A stretch of 64,000 nucleotides of DNA from Nemertoderma westbladi. Its lineage: Eukaryota > Animalia > Xenacoelomorpha. The notes under the pieces are model-generated. The model searched no databases, had not been told where the DNA came from, and was given only the letters and a program-made list of their open reading frames with translations. The stretch spans positions 1 to 64,000 of the forward strand of contig JAUCBJ010003385.1 in NCBI GenBank assembly GCA_032718475.1, written 5' to 3'. The translations under genes and the position numbers were made by a program. Position 1 is the stretch's first letter. Every line of letters begins with the position of its first letter. Positions 25,104-53,600 of the stretch are shown here, one piece after another.

Positions 25104-25610
25104 TTGGTTCTTTATTGTATTTAATAATTATAATATTGTATTTAATAATTATTTTTTGGTTCTTTATTGTATTTAATAATTATTTTTTGGTTCTTTATTG
25201 TATTTAATAATTATTTTTTGGTTCTTTATTGTATTTAATAATTATAATATTGTATTTAATAATTATTTTTTGGTTCTTTATTGTATTTAATAATTATTTT
25301 TTGGTTCTTTATTGTATTTAATAATTATTTTTTGGTTCTTTATTGTATTTAATAATTATTTTTTGGTTCTTTATTGTATTTAATAATTATTTTTTGGTTC
25401 TTTATTGTATTTAATAATTATTTTTTGGTTATTTATTGTATTTAATAATTATTTTTTGGTTCTTTATTGTATTTAATAATTATTTTTTGGTTCTTTATTG
25501 TATTTAATAATTATTTTTTGGTTCTTTATTATATTTAATAATTATAATATTGTATTTAATAATTATTTTTTGGTTCTTTATTGTATTTAATAATTATTTT
25601 TTGGTTCTTA
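25104..25610 (+). repeat. AT-rich 31-bp tandem repeat (TTGGTTCTTTATTGTATTTAATAATTATTTT), ~16 copies with shorter variants
   Basis: Seen directly. Confidence 0.93.
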
Positions 25611-27591: not shown

Positions 27592-28281
27592 GACGGAGAA
27601 GGGCTGTTTAACCGGCACCTATTAGTAAACGCACGAAATACTTAACCGGTTCGTGAACTCGCACGTGAATGAACCTAAAACTTTGGTAAATATTGGTTGA
27701 GAATAATTACAGAAACAGTGTGTTCAACATCTCTCACTAGGTAGAGATAATATGAGACCGCCGCATCACTTATCTTAGGCCCCGTCCTCACTGCCGCCGC
27801 ACTAACTGGTAGGATTTTTAAGCCGGCAGCCAGCTTGGGACGCGTTCATACTACGAATTGCGGTAGCGAAGCTTCAAGCTATCTTAAAAAATACAGTGTG
27901 AAATTGGTTGAAGCGTGTGTCTTAGTGTCGAAGTGTGAACGAGGCCTTCAATTGAACAGCGGAATAAAAAGTAAACATGAACCTGGTGTAAATAAATTAT
28001 TCATCAATACCTAATCCCTGTGTAATTAATTATTTATAAATTACATAATAGATTGGATGAGAGCGATAATGCCGAATTGTTTTTGTTTTACATAATCATC
28101 AATAATTTTACAATTCTGTTCAATTCAAAAACATCGATTCGCAATAATATGCGATGTACAGGAATGGAAAACAAAAAGAAGTGTTTCCGTTTATTTGGCA
28201 ACAAAATGGCGTGACAAACAACCGACCATGTCTTCCAAGTGTGCAGCATATTGTGCAGCATATTGCCGAGCCGACGGTGGG

Positions 28282-28993
28282 TTACATTTGTAAAGTAAAT
28301 TCGAGATTCTGTGGGGCGTTCGGGCCCGATGCATCTGTACTGAGTGCAGACCGGTCGGAAGGGCTGAGTGCAGACCGGTCGGAAATGCTGAGTGCAGACC
28401 GGTCGGAAGGGCTGAGTGCAGACCGGTCGGAAGGGCTGAGTGCAGGCCGGTCGGAAGGGCTGAGTGCAGGCCGGTCGGAAGGGCTGAGTGCAGACCGGTC
28501 GGAAGGGCTGAGTGCAGGCCGGTCGGAAGGGCTGAGTGCAGACCGGTCGGAAGGGCTGAGTGCAAGCCGGTCGGAAGGGCTGAGTGCAAGCCGGTCGGAA
28601 GGGCTGAGTGCAGAAGCGGGAGTACTCAGTACCGACGGTACGGTGTTGTTAGTTCCGGGTTGAGAAGGATATATGGGTTGTTGATTGGCTGGAACTGCGT
28701 CGCCAATAACAACGTGAACAGAACTGCTGGCTGGTTGTTTTATTCGTCTGTTAGTCGGTGCAGGAATCCTTTCTGGCGATGTCCGCTCGTCCAGGTGCAA
28801 CTCCCGCATTCTCTGTATGAAATCCTCCAAATTCTCTTCCTCCTCCGACTCGACGGAGAGGTGGCTCGATGTTACCCTGGTAACGGGGTTCTGTAATTCC
28901 AATTGGCGCACCTCGACTGCAGGAAGTCTTCGGACGCAGTTAGAAGGGAAAGTTCCTTTTCGATTTGGAGAAATATAACCTTCCCACCAAGTA
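28282..28993 (-). CDS. Last coding exon of an SH3-domain protein (C-terminal half of SH3 plus low-complexity Ser/Pro tail)
   Basis: Acceptor TAATTTGTTTCAG| at 28994. The exon reads (S)TWWEGYISPNRKGTFPSNCVRRLPAVEVRQLELQ... in frame with the 209-aa track ORF to TAA at 28282. WWEG and G.FPSN.V are canonical SH3 motifs. Confidence 0.85.
28339..28613 (-). repeat. Coding 24-bp tandem repeat, (ALSPSDR[S/P/L]) x 11
   Basis: Plus-strand unit GGTCGGAAGGGCTGAGTGCAGACC; lies in frame within the terminal exon. Confidence 0.93.
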
Positions 28994-29043
28994 CTGAAAC
29001 AAATTACATTAAAAATACATTTTATTAAAATGCAACCTGTAAT

Positions 29044-32000
29044 CCTAACTAACCTCGCTATTAACCCTGTGCCCCCTAACTAACCTTGATATTAACCCTG
29101 TGCCCCCTAACTAACCTCGCTATTGGCCCTGTGCCCCCTAACTAACCTCGCTGTTGGCCCTGTGCCCCCTAACTAACCTCGCTGTTGGCCCTGTGCCCCC
29201 TAACTAACCTCGCTATTGGCCCTGTGCCCCCTAACTAACCTCGCTGTTGGCCCTGTGCCCCCTAACTAACCTCGCTGTTGGCCCTGTGCCCCCTAACTAA
29301 CCTCGCTATTGGCCCTGTGCCCCCTAACTAACCTCGCTATTGGCCCTGTGCCCCCTAACTAACCTCGCTGTTGGCCCTGTGCCCCCTAACTAACCTCGCT
29401 GTTGGCCCTGTGCCCCCTAACTAACCTCGCTGTTGGCCCTGTGCCCCCTAACTAACCTCGCTATTAACCCTGTGCCCCTAACTAACCTTGATATTAACCC
29501 TGTGCCCCCTAACTAACCTCGCTATTGGCCCTGTGCCCCCTAACTAACCTCGCTGTTGGCCCTGTGCCCCCTAACTAACCTCGCTGTTGGCCCTGTGCCC
29601 CCTAACTAACCTCGCTATTGGCCCTGTGCCCCCTAACTAACCTCGCTGTTGGCCCTGTGCCCCCTAACTAACCTCGCTGTTGGCCCTGTGCCCCCTAACT
29701 AACCTCGCTATTGGCCCTGTGCCCCCTAACTAACCTCGCTGTTGGCCCTGTGCCCCCTAACTAACCTCGCTATTGGCCCTGTGCCCCCTAACTAACCTCG
29801 CTGTTGGCCCTGTGCCCCCTAACTAACCTCGCTGTTGGCCCTGTGCCCCCTAACTAACCTCGCTATTAACCCTGTGCCCCCTAACTAACCTTGCTATTAA
29901 CCCTGTGCCCTCTAACTAACCTCGCTATTAACCCTGTGCCCCCTAACTAACATCGCTATTAACCCTGTGTCCCCTAACTAACCTTGCTATGACCCTGTGC
30001 CCCCTAACTAACCTCGCTATTAACCCTGTGCCCCCTAACTAACCTTGCTATTAACCCTGTGCCCTCTAACTAACCTCGCTATTAACCCTGTGCCCCCTAA
30101 CTAACATCGCTATTAACCCTGTGCCCTCTAACTAACCTCGCTATTAACCCTGTGCCCCCTAACTAACCTCGCTATTAACCCTGTGCCCCCTAACTAACCT
30201 CGCTGTTGGCCCTGTACCCCCTAACTAACCTCGCTATTAACCCTGTGCCCCCTAACTAACCTCGCTATTAACCCTGTGCCCCCTAACTAACCTTGCTATT
30301 AACCCTGTGCCCTCTAACTAACCTCGCTATTAACCCTGTGCCCCCTAACTAACATCGCTATTAACCCTGTGTCCCCTAACTAACCTTGCTATTAATCCTG
30401 TGCCCCCTAACTAACCTTGCTATTAACCCTGTGCCCCCTAACTAACCTCGCTGTTGGACCTGTGCCCCCTAACTAACCTCGCTATTAACCCTGTGCCCCC
30501 TAACTAACCTCGCTGTTGGCCCTGTGCCCCCTAACTAACCTCGCTGTTGGCCCTGTGCCCCCTAACTAACCTCGCTGTTGGCCCTGTGCCCCCTAACTAA
30601 CCTCTCTATTAATCCTGTGCCCCCTAACTAACCTCGCTGTTGGCCCTGTGCCCCCTAACTAACCTCTCTATTAATCATGTGCCCCCTAACTAACCTCGCT
30701 GTTGGCCCTGTGTCCCCGAACTAACCTTGCTATTAACCCTGTGCCCCCAAACTAACCTCGCTGTTGGCCCTGTGCCCCCTATAACTAACCTCGCTGTTAG
30801 ACCTGTGCCTCCTAACTAACCTCGCTATTAACCCTGTGCCCCCTAACTAACCTCGCTGTTGGCCCTGTGCCCCCTAACTAACCTCTCTATTAATCCTGTG
30901 CCCCCTAACTAACCTCGCTGTTGGCCCTGTGCCCCCTAACTAACCTCGCTGTTGGCCCTGTGTCCCCGAACTAACCTTGCTATTAACCCTGTGCCCCCTA
31001 ACTAACCTCGCTGTTGGCCCTGTGCCCCCTAACTAACCTCTCTATTAACCCCGTGCCCTCTAACTAACCTTGATATTAACCCTGTGCCTCCTAACTAACC
31101 TTGCTATTAACCCTGTGCCTCCTAACTAACCTCGCTGTTGGCCCTGTGCCCCCTAACTAACCTCTCTATTAACCCTGTGCCCCCTAACTAACCTCGCTGT
31201 TGGCCCTGTGCCCCCTAACTAACCTCTCTATTAACCCCGTGCCCTCTAACTAACCTTGATATTAACCCTGTGCCTCCTAACTAACCTTGCTATTAACCCT
31301 GTGCCCCCTAACTAACCTTGCTATTAACCCTGTGCCCCCTAACTAACCTCGCTATTGGCCCTGTGCCCCCTAACTAACCTCGCTGTTGGCCCTGTGCCCC
31401 CTAACTAACCTCTCTATTAATCCTGTGCCCCCTAACTAACCTCGCTGTTGGCCCTGTGCCCCCTAACTACCCTCGCTGTTGGCCCTGTGCCCCCTAACTA
31501 ACCTCTCTATTAATCCTGTGCCCCCTAACTAACCTCGCTGTTGGCCCTGTGCCCCCTAACTAACCTCGCTGTTGGCCCTGTGTCCCCGAACTAACCTTGC
31601 TATTAACCCTGTGCCCCCTAACTAACCTCGCTGTTTGACCTGTGCCCCCTAACTAACCTCGCTATTAACCCTGTGCCCCCTAACTAACCTCGCTGTTGGC
31701 CCTGTGCCCCCTAACTAACCTCGCTGTTGGCCCTGTGCCCCCTAACTAACCTCTCTATTAATCCTGTGCCCCCTAACTAACCTCGCTGTTGGCCCTGTGC
31801 CCCCTAACTAACCTCGCTGTTGGACCTGTGCCCCCTAACTAACCTCGCTATTAACCCTGTGCCCCCTAACTAACCTCGCTGTTGGCCCTGTGCCCCCTAA
31901 CTAACCTCGCTGTTGGCCCTGTGTCCCCGAACTAACCTTGCTATTAACCCTGTGCCCCCTAACTAACCTCGCTGTTGGACCTGTGCCCCCTAACTAACCT

Positions 32001-32451
32001 CGCTATTAACCCTGTGCCCCCTAACTAACCTCGCTGTTGGCCCTGTGCCCCCTAACTAACCTCGCTGTTGGCCCTGTGCCCCCTAACTAACCTCTATATT
32101 AATCCTGTGCCCCCTAACTAACATTGCTATTGGCCCTGTGCCCCCTAACTAACCTCGCTGTTGGCCCTGTGCCCCCGAACTAACCCTGCTATTAACCCTG
32201 TGCCCCCTAACTAACCTCGCTGTTGGCCCTGTGCCCCCTAACTAACCTCGCTGTTGGCCCTGTGTCCCCGAACTAACCTTGCTATTAACCCTGTGCCCCC
32301 TAACTAACCTCGCTGTTGGCCCTGTGCCCCCTAACTAACCTCTCTATTAACCCCGTGCCCTCTAACTAACCTTGCTATTAACCCTGTGCCCCCTAACTAA
32401 CCTCGCTGTTGGCCCTGTGCCCCCTAACTAACCTCGCTGTTGGCCCTGTGC
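29044..32451 (-). repeat. Intronic 31-bp satellite, ~110 copies; minus-strand unit GCACAGGGCCAACAGCGAG|GTTAGTTAGGGG (exon end plus 5' splice site)
   Basis: Seen directly; the first minus-strand unit overlaps the 3' end of exon 32433-32604. Confidence 0.96.
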
Positions 32452-32604
32452 TAGTAACCCGAAATATTTCTTTCCTTTGGAAACCTAGATCCCTCGCCAT
32501 CTGAGGAATAAATGTTCGCGTTGCCTCGACCCAGAGTTCGTTGTTAGGGGATTCGGGGCCTCCACTACTATTTCGGTAGACTCGGGTAGCAGCGCTAGGG
32601 AAAC
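32433..32604 (-). CDS. Internal 172-nt coding exon of the SH3-domain protein (N-terminal half of SH3)
   Basis: Acceptor ATTTTATTTTCCAG| at 32605 and donor AG|GTTAGT at 32432. Only one frame is open: xFPSAATRVYRNSSGGPESPNNELWVEATRTFIPQMARDLGFQRKEIFRVTSTGPTA. Its phase-2 end joins exon 28993 in frame (AG+T = Ser). Confidence 0.85.
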
Positions 32605-32663
32605 CTGGAAAATAAAATTATAATTATGAAAACGAAATGGACCTACTGTACTATAGTAACTAC

Positions 32664-35600
32664 TGGCAACTGTAATTAGGTCCCAACGTTCTAGAACAAC
32701 TAACTTTCATGGCAACTGTAATTAGGTACCAACGTTCTAGAACAACTAACCTTCATGGCAACTGTAATTAGGTACCAACGTTCTAGAACAACTAACCTTC
32801 ATGGCAACTGTAATTAGGTACCAACGTTCTAGAACAACTAACCTTCATGGCAACTGTAATTAGGTACCAACGTTCTAGAACAACTAACCTTCATGGCAAC
32901 TGTAATTAGGTACCAACGTTCTAGAACAACTAACCTTCATGGCAACTGTAATTAGGTACCAACGTTCTAGAACAACTAACCTTCATGGCAACTGTAATTA
33001 GGTACCAACGTTCTAGAACAACTAACCTTCATGGCAACTGTAATTAGGTACCAACGTTCTAGAACAACTAACCTTCATGGCAACTGTAATTAGGTGCCAA
33101 CGTTCTAGAACTACTAGCCTTCATGGCAACTGTAATTAGGTACCAACGTTCTAGAACAACTAACCTTCATGGCAACTGTAATTAGGTACCAACGTTCTAG
33201 AACAACTAACCTTCATGGCAACTGTAATTAGGTACCAACGTTGTAGAACAACTAACCTTCATGGCAACTGTAATTAGGTACCAACGTTCTAGAACAACTA
33301 ACCTTCATGGCAACTGTAATTAGGTACCAACGTTCTAGAAGAACTAACCTTCATGGCAACTGTAATTAGGTACCAACGTTCTAGAAGAACTAACCTTCAT
33401 GGCAACTGTAATTAGGTACCAACGTTCAAGAACAACTAACCTTCATGTCAAATGTAATTAGGTACCAACGTTCTAGAACAACTAACCTTCATGGCAACTG
33501 TAATTAGGTACCAACGTTGTAGAACAACTAACCTTCATGGCAACTGTAATTAGGTACCAACGTTCTAGAAGAACTAACCTTCATGGCAACTGTAATTAGG
33601 TACCAACGTTGTAGAACAACTAACCTTCATGGCAACTGTAATTAGGTACCAACGTTCTAGAACAACTAACCTTCATGGCAACTGTAATTAGGTACCAACG
33701 TTCTAGAAGAACTAACCTTCATGGCAACTGTAATTAGGTACCAACGTTGTAGAACAACTAACCTTCATGGCAACTGTAATTAGGTACCAACGTTCTAGAA
33801 CAACTAACCTTCATGGCAACTGTAATTAGGTACCAACGTTCTAGAAGAACTAACCTTCATGGCAACTGTAATTAGGTACCAACGTTCTAGAACAACTAAC
33901 CTTCATGGCAACTGTAATTAGGTACCAACGTTCTAGAACAACTAACTTTCATGGCAACTGTAATTAGGTACCAACGTTCTAGAACAACTAACCTTCATGG
34001 CAACTGTAATTAGGTACCAACGTTGTAGAACAACTAACCTTCATGGCAACTGTAATTAGGTACCAACGTTCTAGAACAACTAACCTTCATGGCAACTGTA
34101 ATTAGGTACCAACGTTCTAGAAGAACTAACCTTCATGGCAACTGTAATTAGGTACCAACGTTGTAGAACAACTAACCTTCATGGCAACTGTAATTAGGTA
34201 CCAACGTTCAAGAACAACTAACCTTCATGTCAAATGTAATTAGGTACCAACGTTCTAGAACAACTAACTTTCATGGCAACTGTAATTAGGTACCAACGTT
34301 CTAGAACAACTAACCTTCATGGCAACTGTAATTAGGTACCAACGTTGTAGAACAACTAACCTTCATGGCAACTGTAATTAGGTACCAACGTTCTAGAACA
34401 ACTAACTTTCATGGCAACTGTAATTAGGTACCAACGTTCTAGAACAACTAACCTTCATGGCAACTGTAATTAGGTACCAACGTTGTAGAACAACTAACCT
34501 TCATGGCAACTGTAATTAGGTACCAACGTTCTAGAAGAACTAACCTTCATGGCAACTGTAATTAGGTACCAACGTTCAAGAACAACTAACCTTCATGTCA
34601 AATGTAATTAGGTACCAACGTTCTAGAACAACTAACTTTCATGGCAACTGTAATTAGGTACCAACGTTCTAGAACAACTAACCTTCATGGCAACTGTAAT
34701 TAGGTACCAACGTTCTAGAACAACTAACCTTCATGGCAACTGTAATTAGGTACCAACGTTCTAGAACAACTAACCTTCATGGCAACTGTAATTAGGTACC
34801 AACGTTCTAGAACAACTAACCTTCATGGCAACTGTAATTAGGTGCCAACGTTCTAGAACTACTAGCCTTCATGGCAACTGTAATTAGGTACCAACGTTCT
34901 AGAACAACTAACCTTCATGGCAACTGTAATTAGGTACCAACGTTCTAGAACAACTAACCTTCATGGCAACTGTAATTAGGTACCAACGTTGTAGAACAAC
35001 TAACCTTCATGGCAACTGTAATTAGGTACCAACGTTCTAGAACAACTAATCTTCATGGCAACTGTAATTAGGTACCAACGTTCTAGAAGAACTAACCTTC
35101 ATGGCAACTGTAATTAGGTACCAACGTTCAAGAACAACTAACCTTCATGTCAAATGTAATTAGGTACCAACGTTCTAGAACAACTAACCTTCATGGCAAC
35201 TGTAATTAGGTACCAACGTTGTAGAACAACTAACCTTCATGGCAACTGTAATTAGGTACCAACGTTCTAGAACAACTAGCCTTCATGGCAACTGTAATTA
35301 GGTACCAACGTTCTAGAACAACTAGCCTTCATGGCAACTGTAATTAGGTACCAACGTTCTAGAAGAACTAACCTTCATGGCAACTGTAATTAGGTACCAA
35401 CGTTCTAGAACAACTAACCTTCATGGCAACTGTAATTAGGTACCAACGTTCTAGAACAACTAACCTTCATGGCAACTGTAATTAGGTACCAACGTTCAAG
35501 AACAACTAACCTTCATGGCAACTGTAATTAGGTACCAACGTTCTAGAACAACTAACCTTCATGGCAACTGTAATTAGGTACCAACGTTCTAGAACAACTA

Positions 35601-38600
35601 ACCTTCATGGCAACTGTAATTAGGTACCAACGTTGTAGAACAACTAACCTTCATGGCAACTGTAATTAGGTACCAACGTTCTAGAACAACTAACCTTCAT
35701 GGCAACTGTAATTAGGTACCAACGTTCTAGAACAACTAACCTTCATGGCAACTGTAATTAGGTACCAACGTTCTAGAACAACTAACCTTCATGGCAACTG
35801 TAATTAGGTACCAACGTTGTAGAACAACTAACCTTCATGGCAACTGTAATTAGGTACCAACGTTCTAGAACAACTAACCTTCATGGCAACTGTAATTAGG
35901 TACCAACGTTGTAGAACAACTAACCTTCATGGCAACTGTAATTAGGTACCAACGTTCTAGAACAACTAACCTTCATGTCAAATGTAATTAGGTACCAACG
36001 TTCTATAACAACTAACCTTCATGGCAACTGTAATTAGGTACCAACGTTCTAGAAGAACTAACCTTCATGTCAAATGTAATTAGGTACCAACGTTCAAGAA
36101 CAACTAACCTTCATGGCAACTGTAATTAGGTACCAACGTTCTAGAACAACTAACCTTCATGTCAAATGTAATTAGGTACCAACGTTCAAGAACAACTAAC
36201 CTTCATGGCAACTGTAATTAGGTACCAACGTTCTAGAACAACTAACCTTCATGTCAAATGTAATTAGGTACCAACGTTCTAGAACAACTAACCTTCATGG
36301 CAACTGTAATTAGGTACCAACGTTCTAGAACAACTAACCTTCATGGCAACTGTAATTAGGTACCAACGTTCTAGAACAACTAACCTTCATGTCAAATGTA
36401 ATTAGGTACCAACGTTCTAGAACAACTAACCTTCATGGCAACTGTAATTAGGTACCAACGTTCTATAACAACTAACCTTCATGGCAACTGTAATTAGGTA
36501 CCAACGTTCAAGAACAACTAACCTTCATGGCAACTGTAATTAGGTACCAACGTTCTAGAACAACTAACCTTCATGGCAACTGTAATTAGGTACCAACGTT
36601 CTAGAACAACTAACCTTCATGTCAAATGTAATTAGGTACCAACGTTCTAGAACAACTAACCTTCATGGCAACTGTAATTAGGTACCAACGTTCTAGAACA
36701 ACTAACCTTCATGTCAAATGTAATTAGGTACCAACGTTCTAGAACAACTAACCTTCATGGCAACTGTAATTAGGTACCAACGTTCTAGAACAACTAACCT
36801 TCATGTCAAATGTAATTAGGTACCAACGTTCTAGAACAACTAACCTTCATGGCAACTGTAATTAGGTACCAACGTTCTAGAACAACTAACCTTCATGGCA
36901 ACTGTAATTAGGTACCAACGTTCTAGAACAACTAACCTTCATGTCAAATGTAATTAGGTACCAACGTTCTAGAACAACTAACCTTCATGGCAACTGTAAT
37001 TAGGTACCAACGTTGTAGAACAACTAACCTTCATGGCAACTGTAATTAGGTACCAACGTTCTATAACAACTAACCTTCATGGCAACTGTAATTAGGTACC
37101 AACGTTCTAGAAGAACTAACCTTCATGTCAAATGTAATTAGGTACCAACGTTCAAGAACAACTAACCTTCATGGCAACTGTAATTAGGTACCAACGTTCT
37201 AGAACAACTAACCTTCATGTCAAATGTAATTAGGTACCAACGTTCAAGAACAACTAACCTTCATGGCAACTGTAATTAGGTACCAACGTTCTAGAACAAC
37301 TAACCTTCATGTCAAATGTAATTAGGTACCAACGTTCTATAACAACTAACCTTCATGGCAACTGTAATTAGGTACCAACGTTCAAGAACAACTAACCTTC
37401 ATGTCAAATGTAATTAGGTACCAACGTTCTATAACAACTAACCTTCATGTCAAATGTAATTAGGTACCAACGTTCTATAACAACTAACCTTCATGGCAAC
37501 TGTAATTAGGTACCAACGTTCTAGAACAACTAACCTTCATGGCAACTGTAATTAGGTACCAACGTTCAAGAACAACTAACCTTCATGGCAACTGTAATTA
37601 GGTACCAACGTTGTAGAACAACTAACCTTCATGGCAACTGTAATTAGGTACCAACGTTCTAGAACAACTAACCTTCATGGCAACTGTAATTAGGTACCAA
37701 CGTTCTAGAACAACTAACCTTCATGGCAACTGTAATTAGGTACCAACGTTCAAGAACAACTAACCTTCATGGCAACTGTAATTAGGTACCAACGTTCTAG
37801 AACAACTAACCTTCATGGCAACTGTAATTAGGTACCAACGTTCTAGAAGAACTAACCTTCATGTCAAATGTAATTAGGTACCAACGTTCAAGAACAACTA
37901 ACCTTCATGGCAACTGTAATTAGCTACCAACGTTCTAGAACAACTAACCTTCATGGCAACTGTAATTAGGTACCAACGTTCAAGAACAACTAACCTTCAT
38001 GGCAACTGTAATTAGGTACCAACGTTCTAGAACAACTAACCTTCATGGCAACTGTAATTAGGTACCAACGTTCTAGAACAACTAACCTTCATGTCAAATG
38101 TAATTAGGTACCAACGTTCTATAACAACTAACCTTCATGGCAACTGTAATTAGGTACCAACGTTCAAGAACAACTAACCTTCATGGCAACTGTAATTAGG
38201 TACCAACGTTCAAAAACAACTAACCTTCATGGCAACTGTAATTAGGTACCAACGTTCAAGAACAACTAACCTTCATGTCAAATGTAATTAGGTACCAACG
38301 TTCTATAACAACTAACCTTCATGGCAACTGTAATTAGGTACCAACGTTCTAGAACAACTAACCTTCATGTCAAATGTAATTAGGTACCAACGTTCTATAA
38401 CAACTAACCTTCATGGCAACTGTAATTAGGTACCAACGTTCAAGAACAACTAACCTTCATGTCAAATGTAATTAGGTACCAACGTTCTATAACAACTAAC
38501 CTTCATGGCAACTGTAATTAGGTACCAACGTTCTAGAACAACTAACCTTCATGTCAAATGTAATTAGGTACCAACGTTCTATAACAACTAACCTTCATGG

Positions 38601-41600
38601 CAACTGTAATTAGGTACCAACGTTCTAGAACAACTAACCTTCATGTCAAATGTAATTAGGTACCAACGTTCTATAACAACTAACCTTCATGGCAACTGTA
38701 ATTAGGTACCAACGTTCTAGAACAACTAACCTTCATGTCAAATGTAATTAGGTACCAACGTTCTATAACAACTAACCTTCATGGCAACTGTAATTAGGTA
38801 CCAACGTTCAAGAACAACTAACCTTCATGGCAACTGTAATTAGGTACCAACGTTCAAGAACAACTAACCTTCATGGCAACTGTAATTAGGTACCAACGTT
38901 CAAGAACAACTAACCTTCATGGCAACTGTAATTAGGTACCAACGTTCTAGAACAACTAACCTTCATGGCAACTGTAATTAGGTACCAACGTTCAAGAACA
39001 ACTAACCTTCATGTCAAATGTAATTAGGTACCAACGTTCAAGAACAACTAACCTTCATGGCAACTGTAATTAGGTACCAACGTTCAAGAACAACTAACCT
39101 TCATGGCAACTGTAATTAGGTACCAACGTTCAAGAACAACTAACCTTCATGGCAACTGTAATTAGGTACCAACGTTCAAGAACAACTAACCTTCATGGCA
39201 ACTGTAATTAGGTACCAACGTTCTAGAACAACTAACCTTCATGGCAACTGTAATTAGGTACCAACGTTCTAGAACAACTAACCTTCATGGCAACTGTAAT
39301 TAGGTACCAACGTTCTAGAACAACTAACCTTCATGGCAACTGTAATTAGGTACCAACGTTCAAGAACAACTAACCTTCATGGCAACTGTAATTAGGTACC
39401 AACGTTCTAGAACAACTAACCTTCATGGCAACTGTAATTAGGTACCAACGTTCTAGAACAACTAACCTTCATGTCAAATGTAATTAGGTACCAACGTTCT
39501 ATAACAACTAACCTTCATGGCAACTGTAATTAGGTACCAACGTTCAAGAACAACTAACCTTCATGGCAACTGTAATTAGGTACCAACGTTCAAGAACAAC
39601 TAACCTTCATGGCAACTGTAATTAGGTACCAACGTTCAAGAACAACTAACCTTCATGTCAAATGTAATTAGGTACCAACGTTCTATAACAACTAACCTTC
39701 ATGGCAACTGTAATTAGGTACCAACGTTCAAGAACAACTAACCTTCATGGCAACTGTAATTAGGTACCAACGTTCTAGAACAACTAACCTTCATGGCAAC
39801 TGTAATTAGGTACCAACGTTCTAGAACAACTAACCTTCATGGCAACTGTAATTAGGTACCAACGTTCTAGAACAACTAACCTTCATGGCAACTGTAATTA
39901 GGTACCAACGTTGTAGAACAACTAACCTTCATGGCAACTGTAATTAGGTACCAACGTTCTAGAACAACTAACCTTCATGGCAACTGTAATTAGGTACCAA
40001 CGTTCTAGAACAACTAACCTTCATGGCAACTGTAATTAGGTACCAACGTTCAAGAACAACTAACCTTCATGGCAACTGTAATTAGGTACCAACGTTCAAG
40101 AACAACTAACCTTCATGTCAAATGTAATTAGGTACCAACGTTCTAGAACAACTAACCTTCATGGCAACTGTAATTAGGTACCAACGTTCTAGAACAACTA
40201 ACCTTCATGGCAACTGTAATTAGGTACCAACGTTCTAGAAGAACTAACCTTCATGGCAACTGTAATTAGGTACCAACGTTCTACAACAACTAACCTTCAT
40301 GGCAACTGTAATTAGGTACCAACGTTCTATAACAACTAACCTTCATGGCAACTGTAATTAGGTACCAACGTTCTAGAACAACTAACCTTCATGGCAACTG
40401 TAATTAGGTACCAACGTTCTAGAACAACTAACCTTCATGGCAACTGTAATTAGGTACCAACGTTGTAGAACAACTAACCTTCATGGCAACTGTAATTAGG
40501 TACCAACGTTCTAGAACAACTAACCTTCATGGCAACTGTAATTAGGTACCAACGTTGTAGAACAACTAACCTTCATGGCAACTGTAATTAGGTACCAACG
40601 TTGTAGAACAACTAACCTTCATGGCAACTGTAATTAGGTACCAACGTTCTAGAACAACTAACCTTCATGGCAACTGTAATTAGGTACCAACGTTCAAGAA
40701 CAACTAACCTTCATGGCAACTGTAATTAGGTACCAACGTTCTAGAACAACTAACCTTCATGGCAACTGTAATTAGGTACCAACGTTCTAGAACAACTAAC
40801 CTTCATGGCAACTGTAATTAGGTACCAACGTTGTAGAACAACTAACCTTCATGGCAACTGTAATTAGGTACCAACGTTCTAGAACAACTAACCTTCATGT
40901 CAAATGTAATTAGGTACCAACGTTCTATAACAACTAACCTTCATGGCAACTGTAATTAGGTACCAACGTTCAAGAACAACTAACCTTCATGGCAACTGTA
41001 ATTAGGTACCAACGTTCTAGAACAACTAACCTTCATGTCAAATGTAATTAGGTACCAACGTTCAAGAACAACTAACCTTCATGGCAACTGTAATTAGGTA
41101 CCAACGTTCTAGAACAACTAACCTTCATGGCAACTGTAATTAGGTACCAACGTTGTAGAACAACTAACCTTCATGTCAAATGTAATTAGGTACCAACGTT
41201 CAAGAACAACTAACCTTCATGGCAACTGTAATTAGGTACCAACGTTCTAGAACAACTAACCTTCATGTCAACTGTAATTAGGTACCAACGTTCTAGAACA
41301 ACTAACCTTCATGGCAACTGTAATTAGGTACCAACGTTCTAGAACAACTAACCTTCATGGCAACTGTAATTAGGTACCAACGTTCTAGAACAACTAACCT
41401 TCATGGCAACTGTAATTAGGTACCAACGTTCTAGAACAACTAACCTTCATGGCAACTGTAATTAGGTACCAACGTTCTAGAACAACTAACCTTCATGGCA
41501 ACTGTAATTAGGTACCAACGTTCTAGAACAACTAACCTTCATGGCAACTGTAATTAGGTACCAACGTTCTAGAACAACTAACCTTCATGGCAACTGTAAT

Positions 41601-44600
41601 TAGGTACCAACGTTCAAGAACAACTAACCTTCATGTCAAATGTAATTAGGTACCAACGTTCTATAACAACTAACCTTCATGGCAACTGTAATTAGGTACC
41701 AACGTTCTAGAACAACTAACCTTCATGTCAAATGTAATTAGGTACCAACGTTCTATAACAACTAACCTTCATGGCAACTGTAATTAGGTACCAACGTTCT
41801 AGAACAACTAACCTTCATGTCAAATGTAATTAGGTACCAACGTTCTATAACAACTAACCTTCATGGCAACTGTAATTAGGTACCAACGTTCTAGAACAAC
41901 TAACCTTCATGTCAAATGTAATTAGGTACCAACGTTCTATAACAACTAACCTTCATGGCAACTGTAATTAGGTACCAACGTTCAAGAACAACTAACCTTC
42001 ATGGCAACTGTAATTAGGTACCAACGTTCAAGAACAACTAACCTTCATGGCAACTGTAATTAGGTACCAACGTTCAAGAACAACTAACCTTCATGGCAAC
42101 TGTAATTAGGTACCAACGTTCTAGAACAACTAACCTTCATGGCAACTGTAATTAGGTACCAACGTTCAAGAACAACTAACCTTCATGTCAAATGTAATTA
42201 GGTACCAACGTTCAAGAACAACTAACCTTCATGGCAACTGTAATTAGGTACCAACGTTCAAGAACAACTAACCTTCATGGCAACTGTAATTAGGTACCAA
42301 CGTTCAAGAACAACTAACCTTCATGGCAACTGTAATTAGGTACCAACGTTCAAGAACAACTAACCTTCATGGCAACTGTAATTAGGTACCAACGTTCTAG
42401 AACAACTAACCTTCATGGCAACTGTAATTAGGTACCAACGTTCTAGAACAACTAACCTTCATGGCAACTGTAATTAGGTACCAACGTTCTAGAACAACTA
42501 ACCTTCATGGCAACTGTAATTAGGTACCAACGTTCTAGAACAACTAACCTTCATGGCAACTGTAATTAGGTACCAACGTTCTAGAACAACTAACCTTCAT
42601 GGCAACTGTAATTAGGTACCAACGTTCTAGAACAACTAACCTTCATGTCAAATGTAATTAGGTACCAACGTTCTATAACAACTAACCTTCATGGCAACTG
42701 TAATTAGGTACCAACGTTCAAGAACAACTAACCTTCATGGCAACTGTAATTAGGTACCAACGTTCAAGAACAACTAACCTTCATGGCAACTGTAATTAGG
42801 TACCAACGTTCAAGAACAACTAACCTTCATGTCAAATGTAATTAGGTACCAACGTTCTATAACAACTAACCTTCATGGCAACTGTAATTAGGTACCAACG
42901 TTCAAGAACAACTAACCTTCATGGCAACTGTAATTAGGTACCAACGTTCTAGAACAACTAACCTTCATGGCAACTGTAATTAGGTACCAACGTTCTAGAA
43001 CAACTAACCTTCATGGCAACTGTAATTAGGTACCAACGTTCTAGAACAACTAACCTTCATGGCAACTGTAATTAGGTACCAACGTTGTAGAACAACTAAC
43101 CTTCATGGCAACTGTAATTAGGTACCAACGTTCTAGAACAACTAACCTTCATGGCAACTGTAATTAGGTACCAACGTTCTAGAACAACTAACCTTCATGG
43201 CAACTGTAATTAGGTACCAACGTTCAAGAACAACTAACCTTCATGGCAACTGTAATTAGGTACCAACGTTCTAGAACAACTAACCTTCATGTCAAATGTA
43301 ATTAGGTACCAACGTTCTAGAACAACTAACCTTCATGGCAACTGTAATTAGGTACCAACGTTCTAGAACAACTAACCTTCATGGCAACTGTAATTAGGTA
43401 CCAACGTTCTAGAAGAACTAACCTTCATGGCAACTGTAATTAGGTACCAACGTTCTACAACAACTAACCTTCATGGCAACTGTAATTAGGTACCAACGTT
43501 CTATAACAACTAACCTTCATGGCAACTGTAATTAGGTACCAACGTTCTAGAACAACTAACCTTCATGGCAACTGTAATTAGGTACCAACGTTCTAGAACA
43601 ACTAACCTTCATGGCAACTGTAATTAGGTACCAACGTTGTAGAACAACTAACCTTCATGGCAACTGTAATTAGGTACCAACGTTCTAGAACAACTAACCT
43701 TCATGGCAACTGTAATTAGGTACCAACGTTGTAGAACAACTAACCTTCATGGCAACTGTAATTAGGTACCAACGTTGTAGAACAACTAACCTTCATGGCA
43801 ACTGTAATTAGGTACCAACGTTCTAGAACAACTAACCTTCATGGCAACTGTAATTAGGTACCAACGTTCAAGAACAACTAACCTTCATGGCAACTGTAAT
43901 TAGGTACCAACGTTCTAGAACAACTAACCTTCATGGCAACTGTAATTAGGTACCAACGTTCTAGAACAACTAACCTTCATGGCAACTGTAATTAGGTACC
44001 AACGTTGTAGAACAACTAACCTTCATGGCAACTGTAATTAGGTACCAACGTTCTAGAACAACTAACCTTCATGTCAAATGTAATTAGGTACCAACGTTCT
44101 ATAACAACTAACCTTCATGGCAACTGTAATTAGGTACCAACGTTCAAGAACAACTAACCTTCATGGCAACTGTAATTAGGTACCAACGTTCTAGAACAAC
44201 TAACCTTCATGTCAAATGTAATTAGGTACCAACGTTCAAGAACAACTAACCTTCATGGCAACTGTAATTAGGTACCAACGTTCTAGAACAACTAACCTTC
44301 ATGGCAACTGTAATTAGGTACCAACGTTGTAGAACAACTAACCTTCATGTCAAATGTAATTAGGTACCAACGTTCAAGAACAACTAACCTTCATGGCAAC
44401 TGTAATTAGGTACCAACGTTCTAGAACAACTAACCTTCATGTCAACTGTAATTAGGTACCAACGTTCTAGAACAACTAACCTTCATGGCAACTGTAATTA
44501 GGTACCAACGTTCTAGAACAACTAACCTTCATGTCAACTGTAATTAGGTACCAACGTTCTAGAACAACTAACCTTCATGGCAACTGTAATTAGGTACCAA

Positions 44601-47600
44601 CGTTCTAGAACAACTAACCTTCATGGCAACTGTAATTAGGTGCCAACGTTCTAGAACTACTAGCCTTCATGGCAACTGTAATTAGGTACCAACGTTCTAG
44701 AACAACTAACCTTCATGGCAACTGTAATTAGGTACCAACGTTCTAGAACAACTAACCTTCATGTCAAATGTAATTAGGTACCAACGTTCAAGAACAACTA
44801 ACCTTCATGGCAACTGTAATTAGGTACCAACGTTCTAGAACAACTAACCTTCATGGCAACTGTAATTAGGTACCAACGTTCTAGAACAACTAACCTTCAT
44901 GGCAACTGTAATTAGGTACCAACGTTCTAGAACAACTAACCTTCATGGCAACTGTAATTAGGTACCAACGTTCTAGAACAACTAACCTTCATGGCAACTG
45001 TAATTAGGTACCAACGTTCTAGAACAACTAACCTTCATGGCAACTGTAATTAGGTACCAACGTTCTAGAACAACTAACCTTCATGGCAACTGTAATTAGG
45101 TACCAACGTTCTAGAACAACTAACCTTCATGGCAACTGTAATTAGGTACCAACGTTCTAGAACAACTAACCTTCATGGCAACTGTAATTAGGTACCAACG
45201 TTCTAGAACAACTAACCTTCATGGCAACTGTAATTAGGTACCAACGTTCTAGAACAACTAACCTTCATGGCAACTGTAATTAGGTACCAACGTTCTAGAA
45301 CAACTAACCTTCATGGCAACTGTAATTAGGTACCAACGTTGTAGAACAACTAACCTTCATGGCAACTGTAATTAGGTACCAACGTTCTAGAACAACTAAC
45401 CTTCATGTCAAATGTAATTAGGTACCAACGTTCTAGAACAACTAACCTTCATGTCAAATGTAATTAGGTACCAACGTTCTATAACAACTAACCTTCATGG
45501 CAACTGTAATTAGGTACCAACGTTCTAGAACAACTAACCTTCATGTCAAATGTAATTAGGTACCAACGTTCTAGAACAACTAACCTTCATGTCAAATGTA
45601 ATTAGGTACCAACGTTCTACAACAACTAACCTTCATGGCAACTGTAATTAGGTACCAACGTTCTATAACAACTAACCTTCATGGCAACTGTAATTAGGTA
45701 CCAACGTTCTAGAACAACTAACCTTCATGGCAACTGTAATTAGGTACCAACGTTCTAGAACAACTAACCTTCATGGCAACTGTAATTAGGTACCAACGTT
45801 GTAGAACAACTAACCTTCATGGCAACTGTAATTAGGTACCAACGTACTAGAACAACTAACCTTCATGGCAACTGTAATTAGGTACCAACGTTGTAGAACA
45901 ACTAACCTTCATGGCAACTGTAATTAGGTACCAACGTTGTAGAACAACTAACCTTCATGGCAACTGTAATTAGGTACCAACGTTCTAGAACAACTAACCT
46001 TCATGGCAACTGTAATTAGGTACCAACGTTCAAGAACAACTAACCTTCATGGCAACTGTAATTAGGTACCAACGTTCTAGAACAACTAACCTTCATGGCA
46101 ACTGTAATTAGGTACCAACGTTCTAGAACAACTAACCTTCATGGCAACTGTAATTAGGTACCAACGTTGTAGAACAACTAACCTTCATGGCAACTGTAAT
46201 TAGGTACCAACGTTCTAGAACAACTAACCTTCATGTCAAATGTAATTAGGTACCAACGTTCTATAACAACTAACCTTCATGGCAACTGTAATTAGGTACC
46301 AACGTTCAAGAACAACTAACCTTCATGGCAACTGTAATTAGGTACCAACGTTCTAGAACAACTAACCTTCATGTCAAATGTAATTAGGTACCAACGTTCA
46401 AGAACAACTAACCTTCATGGCAACTGTAATTAGGTACCAACGTTCTAGAACAACTAACCTTCATGGCAACTGTAATTAGGTACCAACGTTGTAGAACAAC
46501 TAACCTTCATGTCAAATGTAATTAGGTACCAACGTTCAAGAACAACTAACCTTCATGGCAACTGTAATTAGGTACCAACGTTCTAGAACAACTAACCTTC
46601 ATGGCAACTGTAATTAGGTACCAACGTTCTAGAACAACTAACCTTCATGTCAAATGTAATTAGGTACCAACGTTCTAGAACAACTAACCTTCATGGCAAC
46701 TGTAATTAGGTACCAACGTTCTAGAACAACTAACCTTCATGGCAACTGTAATTAGGTACCAACGTTCTAGAACAACTAACCTTCATGGCAACTGTAATTA
46801 GGTACCAACGTTCTAGAACAACTAACCTTCATGGCAACTGTAATTAGGTACCAACGTTCTAGAACAACTAACCTTCATGGCAACTGTAATTAGGTACCAA
46901 CGTTCTAGAACAACTAACCTTCATGGCAACTGTAATTAGGTACCAACGTTCTAGAACAACTAACCTTCATGTCAAATGTAATTAGGTACCAACGTTCTAT
47001 AACAACTAACCTTCATGGCAACTGTAATTAGGTACCAACGTTCAAGAACAACTAACCTTCATGGCAACTGTAATTAGGTACCAATGTTCTAGAACAACTA
47101 ACCTTCATGTCAAATGTAATTAGGTACCAACGTTCAAGAACAACTAACCTTCATGGCAACTGTAATTAGGTACCAACGTTCTAGAAGAACTAACCTTCAT
47201 GTCAAATGTAATTAGGTACCAACGTTCAAGAACAACTAACCTTCATGGCAACTGTAATTAGGTACCAACGTTCTAGAACAACTAACCTTCATGGCAACTG
47301 TAATTAGGTACCAACGTTCTAGAACAACTAACCTTCATGGCAACTGTAATTAGGTACCAACGTTCTAGAACAACTAACCTTCATGGCAACTGTAATTAGG
47401 TACCAACGTTGTAGAACAACTAACCTTCATGGCAACTGTAATTAGGTACCAACGTTCTAGAACAACTAACCGTCATGGCAACTGTAAATAGGTACCAACG
47501 TTCTAGAAGAACTAACCTTCATGGCAACTGTAATTAGCTACCAACGTTCTAGAACAACTAACCGTCATGGCAACAGTAATTAGGTACCATCGTTCTAGAA

Positions 47601-50600
47601 CAACTAACCGTCATGGCAACTGTAAATAGGTACCAACGTTCTAGAACAACTAACCGACATGGCAACTGTAATTAGCTACCAACGTTCTAGAACAACTAAC
47701 CGTCATGGCAACAGTAATTAGGTACCAACGTTCTAGAACAACTAACCGTCATGGCAACTGTAAATAGGTACCAACGTTCTAGAACAACTAACCTTCATGG
47801 CAACTGTAATTAGCTACCAACGTTCTAGAACAACTAACCGTCATGGCAACAGTAATTAGGTACCAACGTTCTAGAACAACTAACCGTCATGGCAACTGTA
47901 ATTAGCTACCAACGTTCTAGAACAACTAACCGTCATGGCAACAGTAATTAGGTAACAACGTTCTAGAACAACTAACCGTCATGGCAACTGTAAATAGGTA
48001 CCAACGTTCTAGAACAACTAACCGACATGGCAACTGTAATTAGGTACCAACGTTCTAGAACAACTAACCGTCATGGCAACAGTAATTAGGTACCAACGTT
48101 CTAGAACAACTAACCGTCATGGCAACTGTAAATAGGTACCAACGTTCTAGAACAACTAACCGACATGGCAACTGTAATTAGGTACCAACGTTCTAGAACA
48201 ACTAACCGTCATGGCAACAGTAATTAGGTACCAACGTTCTAGAACAACTAACCTTCATGGCAACTGTAATTAGGTACCAACGTTCTAGAAGAACTAACCT
48301 TCATGGCAACTGTAATTAGCTACCAACGTTCTAGAACAACTAACCGTCATGGCAACAGTAATTAGGTACCAACGTTCTAGAACAACTAACCGTCATGGCA
48401 ACTGTAAATAGGTACCAACGTTCTAGAACAACTAACCGACATGGCAACTGTAATTAGGTACCAACGTTCTAGAACAACTAACCGTCATGGCAACAGTAAT
48501 TAGGTACCAACGTTCTAGAACAACTAACCTTCATGGCAACTGTAATTAGGTACTAACGTTCTAGAACAACTAACCTTCATGGCAACTGTAATTAAGGTCA
48601 CGAACGTTCTAGAACAACTAACCGTCATGGCAACTGTAATTAGGTACCAACGTTCTAGAACAACTAACCTTCATGGCAACTGTAATTAGGTACCAACGTT
48701 CTAGAACAACTAACCTTCATGGCAACTGTAATTAGGTACTAACGTTCTAGAACAACTAACCTTCATGGCAACTGTAATTAAGGTCACGAACGTTCTAGAA
48801 GAACTAACCTTCATGGCAACTGTAATTAGGTACCAACGTTCTAGAACAACTAACCTTCATGGCAACTGTAATTAGGTACCAACGTTCTAGAACAACTAGC
48901 CTTCATGGCAACTGTAATTAGGTACTAACGTTCTAGAACAACTAACCTTCATGGCAACTGTAATTAAGGTCACGAACGTTCTAGAAGAACTAACCTTCAT
49001 GGCAACTGTAATTAGGTACCAACGTTCAAGAACAACTAACCTTCATGGCAACTGTAATTAGGTACCAACGTTCTAGAAGAACTAACCTTCATGGCAACTG
49101 TAATTAGGTACCAACGTTCTAGAACAACTAACCTTCATGGCAACTGTAATTAGGTACCAACGTTCTAGAACAACTAACCTTCATGGCAACTGTAATTAGG
49201 TACCAACGTTCTAGAACTACTAACCTTCATGGCAACTGTAATTAGGTACCAACGTTCTAGAACAACTAACCTTCATGGCAACTGTAATTAGGTACTAACG
49301 TTCTAGAACAACTAACCTTCATGGCAACTGTAATTAGGTACCAACGTTCTAGAACAACTAACCTTCATGGCAACTGTAATTAGGTACCAACGTTCTAGAA
49401 CAACTAACCTTCATGGCAACTGTAATTAGGTACCAACGTTCTAGAACAACTAACCTTCATGGCAACTGTAATTAGGTACCAACGTTCTAGAACAACTAAC
49501 CTTCATGGCAACTGTAATTAGGTACCAACGTTCAAGAACAACTAACCTTCATGGCAACTGTAATTAGGTACCAACGTTCTAGAACAACTAACCTTCATGG
49601 CAACTGTAATTAGGTACCAACGTTCTAGAACAACTAACCTTCATGGCAACTGTAATTAGGTACCAACGTTCAAGAACAACTAACCTTCATGGCAACTGTA
49701 ATTAGGTACCAACGTTCTAGAACAACTAACCTTCATGGCAACTGTAATTAGGTACCAACGTTCTAGAACAACTAACCTTCATGGCAACTGTAATTAGGTA
49801 CCAACGTTCTAGAACAACTAACCTTCATGGCAACTGTAATTAGGTACCAACGTTCTAGAACAACTAACCTTCATGGCAACTGTAATTAGGTACCAACGTT
49901 CAAGAACAACTAACCTTCATGGCAACTGTAATTAGGTACCAACGTTCTAGAACAACTAACCTTCATGGCAACTGTAATTAGGTACCAACGTTCTAGAACA
50001 ACTAACCTTCATGGCAACTGTAATTAGGTACCAACGTTCAAGAACAACTAACCTTCATGGCAACTGTAATTAGGTACCAACGTTCTAGAACAACTAACCT
50101 TCATGGCAACTGTAATTAGGTACCAACGTTCTAGAACAACTAACCTTCATGGCAACTGTAATTAGGTACCAACGTTCTAGAACAACTAACCTTCATGGCA
50201 ACTGTAATTAGGTACCAACGTTCTAGAACAACTAACCTTCATGGCAACTGTAATTAGGTACCAACGTTCTAGAACAACTAACCTTCATGGCAACTGTAAT
50301 TAGGTACCAACGTTCTAGAACAACTAACCTTCATGGCAACTGTAATTAGGTACCAACGTTCTAGAAGAACTAACCTTCATGGCAACTGTAATTAGGTACC
50401 AACGTTCTAGAACAACTAACCTTCATGGCAACTGTAATTAGGTACCAACGTTCTAGAAGAACTAACCTTCATGGCAACTGTAATTAGGTACCAACGTTCT
50501 AGAACAACTAACCTTCATGGCAACTGTAATTAGGTACCAACGTTCTATAACAACTAACCTTCATGGCAACTGTAATTAGGTACCAACGTTCAAGAACAAC

Positions 50601-53600
50601 TAACCTTCATGGCAACTGTAATTAGGTACCAACGTTCTAGAACAACTAACCTTCATGGCAACTGTAATTAGGTACCAACGTTCTAGAACAACTAACCTTC
50701 ATGGCAACTGTAATTAGGTACCAACGTTCTAGAACAACTAACCTTCATGGCAACTGTAATTAGGTACCAACGTTCTAGAACAACTAACCTTCATGGCAAC
50801 TGTAATTAGGTACCAACGTTCTAGAACAACTAACCTTCATGGCAACTGTAATTAGGTACCAACGTTCAAGAACAACTAACCTTCATGGCAACTGTAATTA
50901 GGTACCAACGTTCTAGAACAACTAACCTTCATGGCAACTGTAATTAGGTACCAACGTTCTAGAACAACTAACCTTCATGGCAACTGTAATTAGGTACCAA
51001 CGTTCAAGAACAACTAACCTTCATGGCAACTGTAATTAGGTACCAACGTTCTAGAACAACTAACCTTCATGGCAACTGTAATTAGGTACCAACGTTCTAG
51101 AACAACTAACCTTCATGGCAACTGTAATTAGGTACCAACGTTCTAGAACAACTAACCTTCATGGCAACTGTAATTAGGTACCAACGTTCTAGAACAACTA
51201 ACCTTCATGGCAACTGTAATTAGGTACCAACGTTCTAGAACAACTAACCTTCATGGCAACTGTAATTAGGTACCAACGTTCTAGAACAACTAACCTTCAT
51301 GGCAACTGTAATTAGGTACCAACGTTCTAGAAGAACTAACCTTCATGGCAACTGTAATTAGGTACCAACGTTCTAGAACAACTAACCTTCATGGCAACTG
51401 TAATTAGGTACCAACGTTCTAGAAGAACTAACCTTCATGGCAACTGTAATTAGGTACCAACGTTCTAGAACAACTAACCTTCATGGCAACTGTAATTAGG
51501 TACCAACGTTCTATAACAACTAACCTTCATGGCAACTGTAATTAGGTACCAACGTTCAAGAACAACTAACCTTCATGGCAACTGTAATTAGGTACCAACG
51601 TTCTAGAACAACTAACCTTCATGGCAACTGTAATTAGGTACCAACGTTCTAGAAGAACTAACCTTCATGGCAACTGTAATTAGGTACCAACGTTCTAGAA
51701 CAACTAACCTTCATGGCAACTGTAATTAGGTACCAACGTTCTAGAAGAACTAACCTTCATGGCAACTGTAATTAGGTACCAACGTTCTAGAAGAACTAAC
51801 CTTCATGTCAAATGTAATTAGGTACCAACGTTCTAGAACAACTAACCTTCATGGCAACTGTAATTAGGTACCAACGTTCTAGAACAACTAACCTTCATGG
51901 CAACTGTAATTAGGTACCAACGTTCTAGAACAACTAACCTTCATGGCAACTGTAATTAGGTACCAACGTTCTATAACAACTAACCTTCATGGCAACTGTA
52001 ATTAGGTACCAACGTTCTAGAACAACTAACCTTCATGGCAACTGTAATTAGGTACCAACGTTCTAGAAGAACTAACCTTCATGGCAACTGTAATTAGGTA
52101 CCAACGTTCAAGAACAACTAACCTTCATGGCAACTGTAATTAGGTACCAACGTTCTAGAAGAACTAACCTTCATGGCAACTGTAATTAGGTACCAACGTT
52201 CTAGAAGAACTAACCTTCATGTCAAATGTAATTAGGTACCAACGTTCAAGAACAACTAACCTTCATGGCAACTGTAATTAGGTACCAACGTTCTAGAACA
52301 ACTAACCTTCATGGCAACTGTAATTAGGTACCAACGTTCTAGAAGAACTAACCTTCATGGCAACTGTAATTAGGTACCAACGTTCTAGAAGAACTAACCT
52401 TCATGGCAACTGTAATTAGGTACCAACGTTCTAGAACAACTAACCTTCATGGCAACTGTAATTAGGTACCAACGTTCTAGAACAACTAACCTTCATGGCA
52501 ACTGTAATTAGGTACCAACGTTCAAGAACAACTAACCTTCATGGCAACTGTAATTAGGTACCAACGTTCAAGAACAACTAACCTTCATGGCAACTGTAAT
52601 TAGGTACCAACGTTCTAGAACAACTAACCTTCATGGCAACTGTAATTAGGTACCAACGTTCTAGAACAACTAACCTTCATGGCAACTGTAATTAGGTACC
52701 AACGTTCTAGAACAACTAACCTTCATGGCAAATGTAATTAGGTGCCAACGTTCTAGAACAACTAACCTTCATGGCAACTGTAATTAGGTACCAACGTTCA
52801 AGAACAACTAACCTTCATGGCAACTGTAATTAGGTACCAACGTTCTAGAACAACTAACCTTCATGTCAAATGTAATTAGGTACCAACGTTCAAGAACAAC
52901 TAACCTTCATGGCAACTGTAATTAGGTACCAACGTTCAAGAACAACTAACCTTCATGGCAACTGTAATTAGGTACCAACGTTCTAGAACAACTAACCTTC
53001 ATGGCAACTGTAATTAGGTACCAACGTTCTAGAAGAACTAACCTTCATGGCAACTGTAATTAGGTACCAACGTTCTAGAAGAACTAACCTTCATGGCAAC
53101 TGTAATTAGGTACCAACGTTCAAGAACAACTAACCTTCATGGCAACTGTAATTAGGTACCAACGTTCAAGAACAACTAACCTTCATGGCAACTGTAATTA
53201 GGTACCAACGTTCTAGAACAACTAACCTTCATGGCAACTGTAATTAGGTACCAACGTTCTAGAAGAACTAACCTTCATGGCAACTGTAATTAGGTACCAA
53301 CGTTCTAGAACAACTAACCTTCATGGCAACTGTAATTAGGTACCAACGTTCAAGAACAACTAACCTTCATGGCAACTGTAATTAGGTACCAACGTTCTAG
53401 AACAACTAACCTTCATGGCAACTGTAATTAGGTACCAACGTTCAAGAACAACTAACCTTCATGGCAACTGTAATTAGGTACCAACGTTCAAGAACAACTA
53501 ACCTTCATGGCAACTGTAATTAGGTACCAACGTTCTAGAACAACTAACCTTCATGGCAACTGTAATTAGGTACCAACGTTCTAGAAGAACTAACCTTCAT

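Follow-up and report, generated by a model that had tools for sequence, protein, structure and literature searches.

Gene model of the SH3-encoding locus

The window analyzed here is the whole stretch from position 1 to position 64,000 of contig JAUCBJ010003385.1 of the xenacoelomorph Nemertoderma westbladi (GenBank assembly GCA_032718475.1). On its minus strand, it contains two exons, A and B, that encode the two halves of an SH3 domain and are separated by an intron of 3,439 nucleotides (nt; positions 32432-28994). Nearly all of this intron is a minisatellite whose 31-nt unit repeats the end of exon A together with the intron's own 5' splice site (donor). Only the first donor yields a complete SH3 domain, and the array has probably grown, neutrally, from a much smaller intron. 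The features of the locus are as follows (a slash marks the exon-intron junction).

32433..32604, minus strand: exon A, 172 nt, N-terminal half of the SH3 domain, identified by its acceptor, open frame, and Pfam match
32427..32435, minus strand: first 5' splice site, GAG/GTTAGT, with the GT at 32432-32431; presumed authentic from the SH3 join
29054..32432, minus strand: 31-nt minisatellite, 109 full units, each consisting of 10 intron-start bases, 2 G residues, and 19 exon-end bases
28994..29053, minus strand: last donor and AT-rich remnant, 60 nt, with a T-rich tract and a CAG acceptor; AATAAA at 29026
28282..28993, minus strand: exon B, C-terminal half of the SH3 domain and a low-complexity tail, stop codon at 28284-28282

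Exon A is open across 56 codons, follows a T-rich acceptor (65% pyrimidines in the preceding stretch), and needs a phase-1 intron upstream and a phase-2 intron downstream. Exon B is open across 236 codons and is probably the last exon, because it ends in a stop codon at 28282, is followed by an AATAAA poly(A) signal at 28195, and, when scanned, contained no internal donor-like site matching at least 7 of the 9 consensus positions. Near its end (28340-28614, minus strand), there is an in-frame 24-nt coding repeat in 11.5 copies, which encodes an 8-residue unit rich in Ser, Pro, Asp, and Arg.

The two exons match contiguous segments of the Pfam SH3_2 model, positions 4-27 in exon A (E value of 0.067) and 35-53 in exon B (E value of 0.11), each of them under the cut-off when taken alone. 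In comparisons with the PDB, exon B had 34 matches at E values up to 10, nearly all to SH3 proteins (best E value, 0.006); the sole match of exon A was the SH3 domain of Grb2 (E value of 0.22), which is only a hint at the gene family. The joined peptide was scored against a home-made profile of 10 SH3 domains from three unrelated proteins that had been retrieved with exon B as the query. The peptide joined at the first donor scores 40.9 bits and covers the full span of the domain (profile positions 3-58 of 60); true SH3 domains that had not been used to build the profile range from 34 to 68 bits. Joins from internal donors 1-4 score 4.2-4.8 bits. Among 42 GT/AG pairs near the intron ends, the only other full-span join reaches 10.6 bits, and the remaining pairs score at most what exon B scores alone, about 30 bits; the best of 500 shuffled controls (348 returned a score) had 4.2 bits. 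The original prediction, a note made from the letters of this DNA alone, had split an SH3 domain between these two exons and staked that model on the joined peptide matching an SH3 profile. The peptide does match, and the Pfam halves and the PDB matches uphold the model along with it.

Searches for relatives of the encoded protein returned little. The first 111 residues of exon B retrieved only three generic multi-SH3 proteins, none of 10 candidates found with exon A as the query (longer proteins only) is a relative, ESM Atlas gave no match at 0.9 or above, and none of 454 candidates from a metagenome scan for exon B was confirmed.

Anatomy of the 31-nt donor array

Tandem Repeats Finder (TRF) reports a period of 31 and 109.9 copies at 29044-32451 (score of 5125), far beyond chance. 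The 109 full units measure 31 nt in 106 cases, 30 nt in two, and 33 nt in one; the 106 units of 31 nt fall into 26 types, with a mean pairwise identity of 90%. The exon-intron boundary within the first unit is fixed because the SH3 frame sets it, and the first monomer spans that boundary: the exact last 19 nt of exon A end 38 of the 109 units. The donor itself is reiterated head to tail. Its GT is kept in all downstream copies except one, which has GG (108 of 109), and the context from -3 to +6 is identical to that of the real donor in 84 of them. After the last donor, whose GT lies at 29053, only the 60-nt remnant is left, a unique sequence with 23% GC, and the intron is 57 times as long as this remnant. 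The unit is G-rich (mean G4Hunter value of 0.92), with TTAGGG occurring 90 times. Apart from one stray 16-mer match, neither this unit nor the 46-nt unit described below was found elsewhere in the window.

These data bear out the coordinates and anatomy that had been proposed for the array, including the last donor and the 60-nt tail, as well as an estimated expansion of about 55-fold. The unit had been described as about 19 exonic plus about 12 intronic nt; the 19 exon bases stand, but only 10 of the 12 others match the surviving intron start, and the remaining two are G residues that arose at the junction.

Two side observations concern the units themselves. The second most common class (49 of the 109 units) shares 11 of 14 positions with the preceding bases of the exon (within 32433-32460), a level reached by 61 of 20,000 shuffles in a test that was picked post hoc; a template switch might be the reason. 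When translated in the exon frame, 107 of the 109 unit ends are free of stops, and an exchange with the exon would alter residues in SH3 loops.

A second candidate donor array upstream of exon A

The intron before exon A is also filled by a satellite, which the original prediction did not mention and which runs for more than 31 kb, with its units 97% alike.

32664..64000, continuing past the window end, minus strand: 46-nt satellite, at least 681 copies, junction AAG/GTTAGTT, putative donor array
32605..32704, minus strand: upstream remnant, 100 nt, from the last GT of the array to the acceptor of exon A

The junction reads AAG/GTTAGT in 642 of 675 units. The remnant begins with 41 nt that match the 46-nt unit with a single mismatch, continues as unique, AT-rich sequence, and is probably the ancestral upstream intron. 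Compared with the donor consensus on the strand of the gene, the unit agrees at 8 of 9 positions, a level also seen in 1,852 of 100,000 shuffles. This score is crude: one of eight control arrays has 7, and so does the 31-mer itself. The two units share a 9-nt word (78 of 20,000 shuffles). This word could be a satellite-favored motif resembling the telomeric repeat rather than a sign of donor origin. On balance, we lean towards the view that the 46-nt array is donor derived, with some 5 exon and 41 intron bases per unit and a source exon that would lie beyond position 64000. If so, it would exceed the longest published array of this kind that we compared, that of ABCA7 (see below).

The 46-nt unit has no G-runs (mean G4Hunter value of 0.09). 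A CTAAT resembling a branch point precedes its AAG by about 17 nt, and a CAG located 11 nt upstream of the donor might define a cryptic micro-exon. An ATG in the unit was rejected as a start codon, since translation from it would enter exon A in a frame that stops. Besides the frame in the phase required by exon A, the unit has a second open frame, which makes this openness uninformative. A metagenome scan with a 26-nt piece of the unit gave no matches.

Known donor-spanning minisatellites

Arrays of this kind are already on record, and the idea that the one described here is new or puzzling does not hold. The comparisons below draw on excerpts of the cited publications. In the minisatellites of F7, CBS, 6-16, LMNB2, and PDGF, the first monomer spans the exon-intron boundary (PMC1557585, Borensztajn et al. 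2006). With up to 12 monomers of the 37-bp variable number tandem repeat (VNTR) in F7 intron 7, splicing is confined to the functional donor lying farthest upstream, whereas CBS and 6-16, with 15-20 copies (CBS intron 13) and 25 copies, respectively, leak to two further donor sites (PMC1557585). The human F7 repeat is like the 31-nt array in its boundary-spanning first monomer, in the identical donors that follow the real one, and in the G triplets of its unit. It differs in having 5-9 copies rather than 110 and fewer than the 19 exon bases per unit seen here, and in that use of the first site has been shown for F7 and is deduced for N. westbladi. The layout of the 46-nt unit, with its approximately 5 exon and 41 intron bases, resembles the 4 + 33 arrangement of F7.

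The 25-bp VNTR in intron 18 of ABCA7 also includes the donor and reaches about 427 units; its splicing leaks to the second donor, which retains one unit and causes a frameshift (PMC5954066, De Roeck et al. 2018). The likeness lies in the donor inside the unit, in the frameshift upon use of the next donor, as would happen here with donor 2, and in very long alleles. The differences are the larger maximum copy number and, in ABCA7, a measured variation in length between alleles and a measured influence on splicing. Among invertebrates, the amphioxus “mirage” minisatellites of Adh3 and the globins BflGb6 and BflGb9 span exon-intron boundaries, have units of 10-160 bp, evolve in concert, and are reported to leave splicing undisturbed (PMC3087553). 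In the globins, they have only 3-6 copies, and either boundary may be copied (PMC3087553). Unlike in amphioxus, the N. westbladi array has intron-free Cbl and cyclin-like genes nearby. Introns greatly enlarged by satellites are known from expressed Y-linked genes of Drosophila, where they reach megabase size (PMC6508621, PMC11207136). These are relevant to the >31-kb upstream intron, although the excerpts of these two sources give no sign of units derived from a splice junction.

The 31-nt array is, thus, a real and clean member of an already known repeat class, and its size of 110 copies is unexceptional among the published cases. No genome-wide survey of donor-spanning minisatellites was found in the literature, in a search that left subscription journals largely uncovered, so larger published arrays may exist; the study in PMC10078293 covers, in its available part, motifs of up to 20 bp only.

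Donor choice and the fate of mis-spliced products

From the SH3 frame and the precedents of F7 and the mirage minisatellites, the spliceosome likely uses the first donor. Alignment programs are known to produce false junctions between repeats (PMC10632439), and because 38 units share the last 19 nt of exon A, a short read would have to cover more than 21 nt of this exon to be assigned to the first donor. As the original prediction had it, read-through into the intron reaches a TAG in the second copy and the first donor alone restores the SH3 frame. Use of donor 2 shifts the frame, and translation would then end within exon B, 54 nt past the last junction. Every donor from the third on carries a stop, because it retains the TAG of the second copy. 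If exon B is the last exon, this stop lies 22 nt before the last junction for donor 3, 53 nt before it for donor 4, and farther before it for later donors. Nonsense-mediated decay (NMD) that depends on exon junctions requires a stop more than 50-55 nt upstream of the last junction. Given where their stops lie, the products of the two nearest decoys would likely escape this form of NMD, though NMD that depends on the length of the 3' untranslated region might still be their fate.

Origin of the array

The reading that we consider quite likely is that the array grew neutrally from an intron of about 60 nt, with the first donor remaining in use and the extra copies being tolerated. The surviving 60-nt AT-rich remnant is the probable ancestral small intron. 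Bases -26 to -13 of the exon match bases +5 to +18 of the remnant at 10 of 14 positions, 30 nt apart and on either side of the junction, and 705 of 20,000 shuffles reach the score of this direct repeat. The junction between units is a hybrid, with the left part from the intron copy, the right part from the exon copy, and one base added. Short direct repeats, and slippage between them, have been described as the origin of minisatellites, as far as the available part of that source goes (PMC2820488). The first duplication may, in the same way, have arisen by slippage between these imperfect 14-nt repeats, and the earlier suggestion that a small intron had grown by amplifying its own junction is supported by the remnant and by this likely seed. 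Expansion would have followed through unequal exchange in a region rich in tandem repeats, with which the repeated blocks of unit types (longest run of 8, reached in none of 1,000 shuffles), the 90% identity, and the 26 types all fit. The G-rich, TTAGGG-containing unit may have contributed instability.

In an intron of 60 nt, few 31-nt duplications could avoid touching a splice signal, and donor-spanning ones would be tolerated if the first donor wins. Tolerance could be explained by exon definition combined with first-come choice, which would commit the donor nearest exon A. Occasional use of the second or third donor is likely; the resulting proteins would be truncated and lack the SH3 domain. 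The 46-nt upstream satellite may have had the same origin, from the donor of the previous exon.

Several points weigh against this reading. We infer donor use, and even expression, from the genomic DNA rather than from transcripts. The SH3 profile favors the exon B half, because its source proteins were found via exon B, which on its own scores 30.2 bits (exon A, 5.4 bits), and the joined peptide was scored only on this profile, as the Pfam scores cover the two exons separately. No relative was found, so that the 60-nt ancestral state is read from this one sequence, and the seed repeat was tested after it had been seen. In the literature excerpts, early tandem-duplication experiments preferred the downstream copy and the rule derived from F7 was tested to 12 copies only, in mammalian cells (PMC1557585), while in ABCA7 the length of the repeat alters splicing (PMC5954066). 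Finally, an uncorrected test of donor invariance leans towards the original prediction, as discussed below.

Alternative explanations

Rather unlikely, and in any case an addition to neutral growth rather than a replacement for it, is the idea that the array silences itself: binding of hnRNP A/B and F/H to the UAGGGG and G-runs that follow each decoy would make the array loop out and steer splicing towards the first donor. The intron contains 91 copies of TAGGG and exon A none; as a result, the first donor is the only one without this motif upstream. In mammalian extracts, such sites favor the distal 5' splice site and repress an enclosed one (PMC1326234, in part). However, the N. westbladi unit has UAGGGG and not the UAGGGU or UAGGGA named in the available part of that work, and mutation of the G triplets left the choice of donor in F7 unchanged (PMC1557585, in part). 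The lack of G-runs in the 46-nt unit shows that silencing of this type would not be a general rule at this locus.

It is improbable that the gene is dead or untranscribed, a gene tail buried in satellite at which no choice of donor is ever made. The more than 31 kb of satellite before exon A, with no upstream exon visible in the window, and the divergence of the SH3 halves that keeps each under the Pfam cut-off would agree with such a fate. Against it, both exons are open throughout, the first donor is undamaged, as are both acceptors, and the poly(A) signal follows the stop; moreover, the Drosophila genes with giant satellite-filled introns are expressed (PMC6508621, in part).

The original prediction had also considered that the decoys could serve NMD-coupled regulation. 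In this view, copy number or a splicing factor would set the share of transcripts that is spliced unproductively and removed. We regard this as very improbable. In its favor are the preservation of nearly all downstream GTs, the position of the stop at least 53 nt before the last junction for donors from the fourth or fifth on, and the influence of VNTR length on splicing in ABCA7 (PMC5954066, in part). The near-invariance of GTTAGT is correct as a description, since one of the 106 units of 31 nt differs (three units with indels were left out), and only 1 of the 20 variant alleles in these units falls at +1 to +6, against 3.9 expected (P = 0.043, uncorrected). As a signal of selection it is weak: with the base class held constant, 3.1-3.4 alleles are expected (P = 0.078-0.086), and positions -3 to -1 of the same array carry three variant alleles. 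In the 46-nt array (676 units, with four indel units left out), positions +1 to +6 carry three alleles against 3.1-3.3 expected (P of about 0.6). Neither array, then, shows significant protection of the donor motif, and the case for selection on GTTAGT is poor, as the signal fades under control for base composition. In addition, it is the nearest decoys that leak in the known cases, and here these are the ones whose products likely escape junction-dependent NMD.

There is very little to suggest that the AG/GT junctions are recursive-splicing ratchet points, at which the intron would be removed stepwise with regeneration of the same donor. Most unit junctions are AG/GT, a step of this kind would leave no trace in the mRNA, and the 46-nt unit offers the branch-like CTAAT. 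A ratchet point is, however, defined by a polypyrimidine tract and a YAG directly followed by GT. T makes up 0% of the 20 nt before the AG in the 31-mer and 30% in the 46-mer, compared to 60-65% at the two real acceptors, and the triplets are GAG or AAG; having neither a polypyrimidine tract nor a YAG, the units were rejected as ratchet points. Equally hard to credit are a birth of the intron by duplication (a Rogers-type gain, for which the units do carry AG/GT but which was rejected because the duplicated unit did not supply the acceptor, which, like its T-rich tract, belongs to the unique 60-nt tail) and an assembly artifact (tandem arrays are prone to errors in copy number, but 26 unit types in ordered blocks are unlike collapsed or duplicated reads).

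Other features of the window

Ten tandem arrays cover 43,420 of the 64,000 bases (68%). Besides the two arrays described above, there are further, unrelated minisatellites at 1-782, 23839-24371, 25113-25609, and 26191-27596 (units of 25, 49, 45, 31, and 46 nt), which match the donor consensus at no more than 6 of 9 positions on either strand. A complex 5-kb tandem array with subunits of 33-107 nt (17502-22807) has a perfect inverted repeat of 105 nt at its two ends (17502-17606 and 22703-22807) and resembles a foldback element, or a miniature inverted-repeat transposable element, with internal expansion.

Two further protein-coding genes were recognized on the minus strand. The first, at 1526-3493, encodes a Cbl E3 ligase with all N-terminal domains and the RING domain in an uninterrupted frame of 655 codons; animal Cbl genes usually contain several introns. 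Scoring of 7,985 candidate relatives gave 2,007 matches, the best 120 of which are at most 71% identical, and all named ones among these come from animals. The second, at 13482-14495, is an uninterrupted frame with a Cyclin_N match (E value of 2.6e-06), presumably resembling CNTD1; none of 900 candidates was a relative at an E value of 1e-10.

Implications

The locus is a natural setting in which to ask whether the first-donor rule extends beyond the 12 copies examined in F7: exon A, 172 nt long, is flanked by 109 decoys downstream and, probably, by more than 680 upstream, the latter spread over 31 kb, and the birth of the downstream array can still be read from the surviving 60-nt remnant. 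The second, putative array is the one feature that could raise the significance of the locus. A bolder reading, which we offer as a long shot, is that AG/GTTAGTT donors are hot spots of satellite birth in this genome, so that two consecutive introns of one working gene have acquired 110 and more than 680 donors, respectively, and that copy number tunes the amount of intact SH3 protein. If this were true, the two arrays together would be larger than any in the literature compared here. Should such arrays prove to be enriched at GTTAGTT donors across the genome, this would suggest that a bias, either mutational or selective, acts on the growth of introns.

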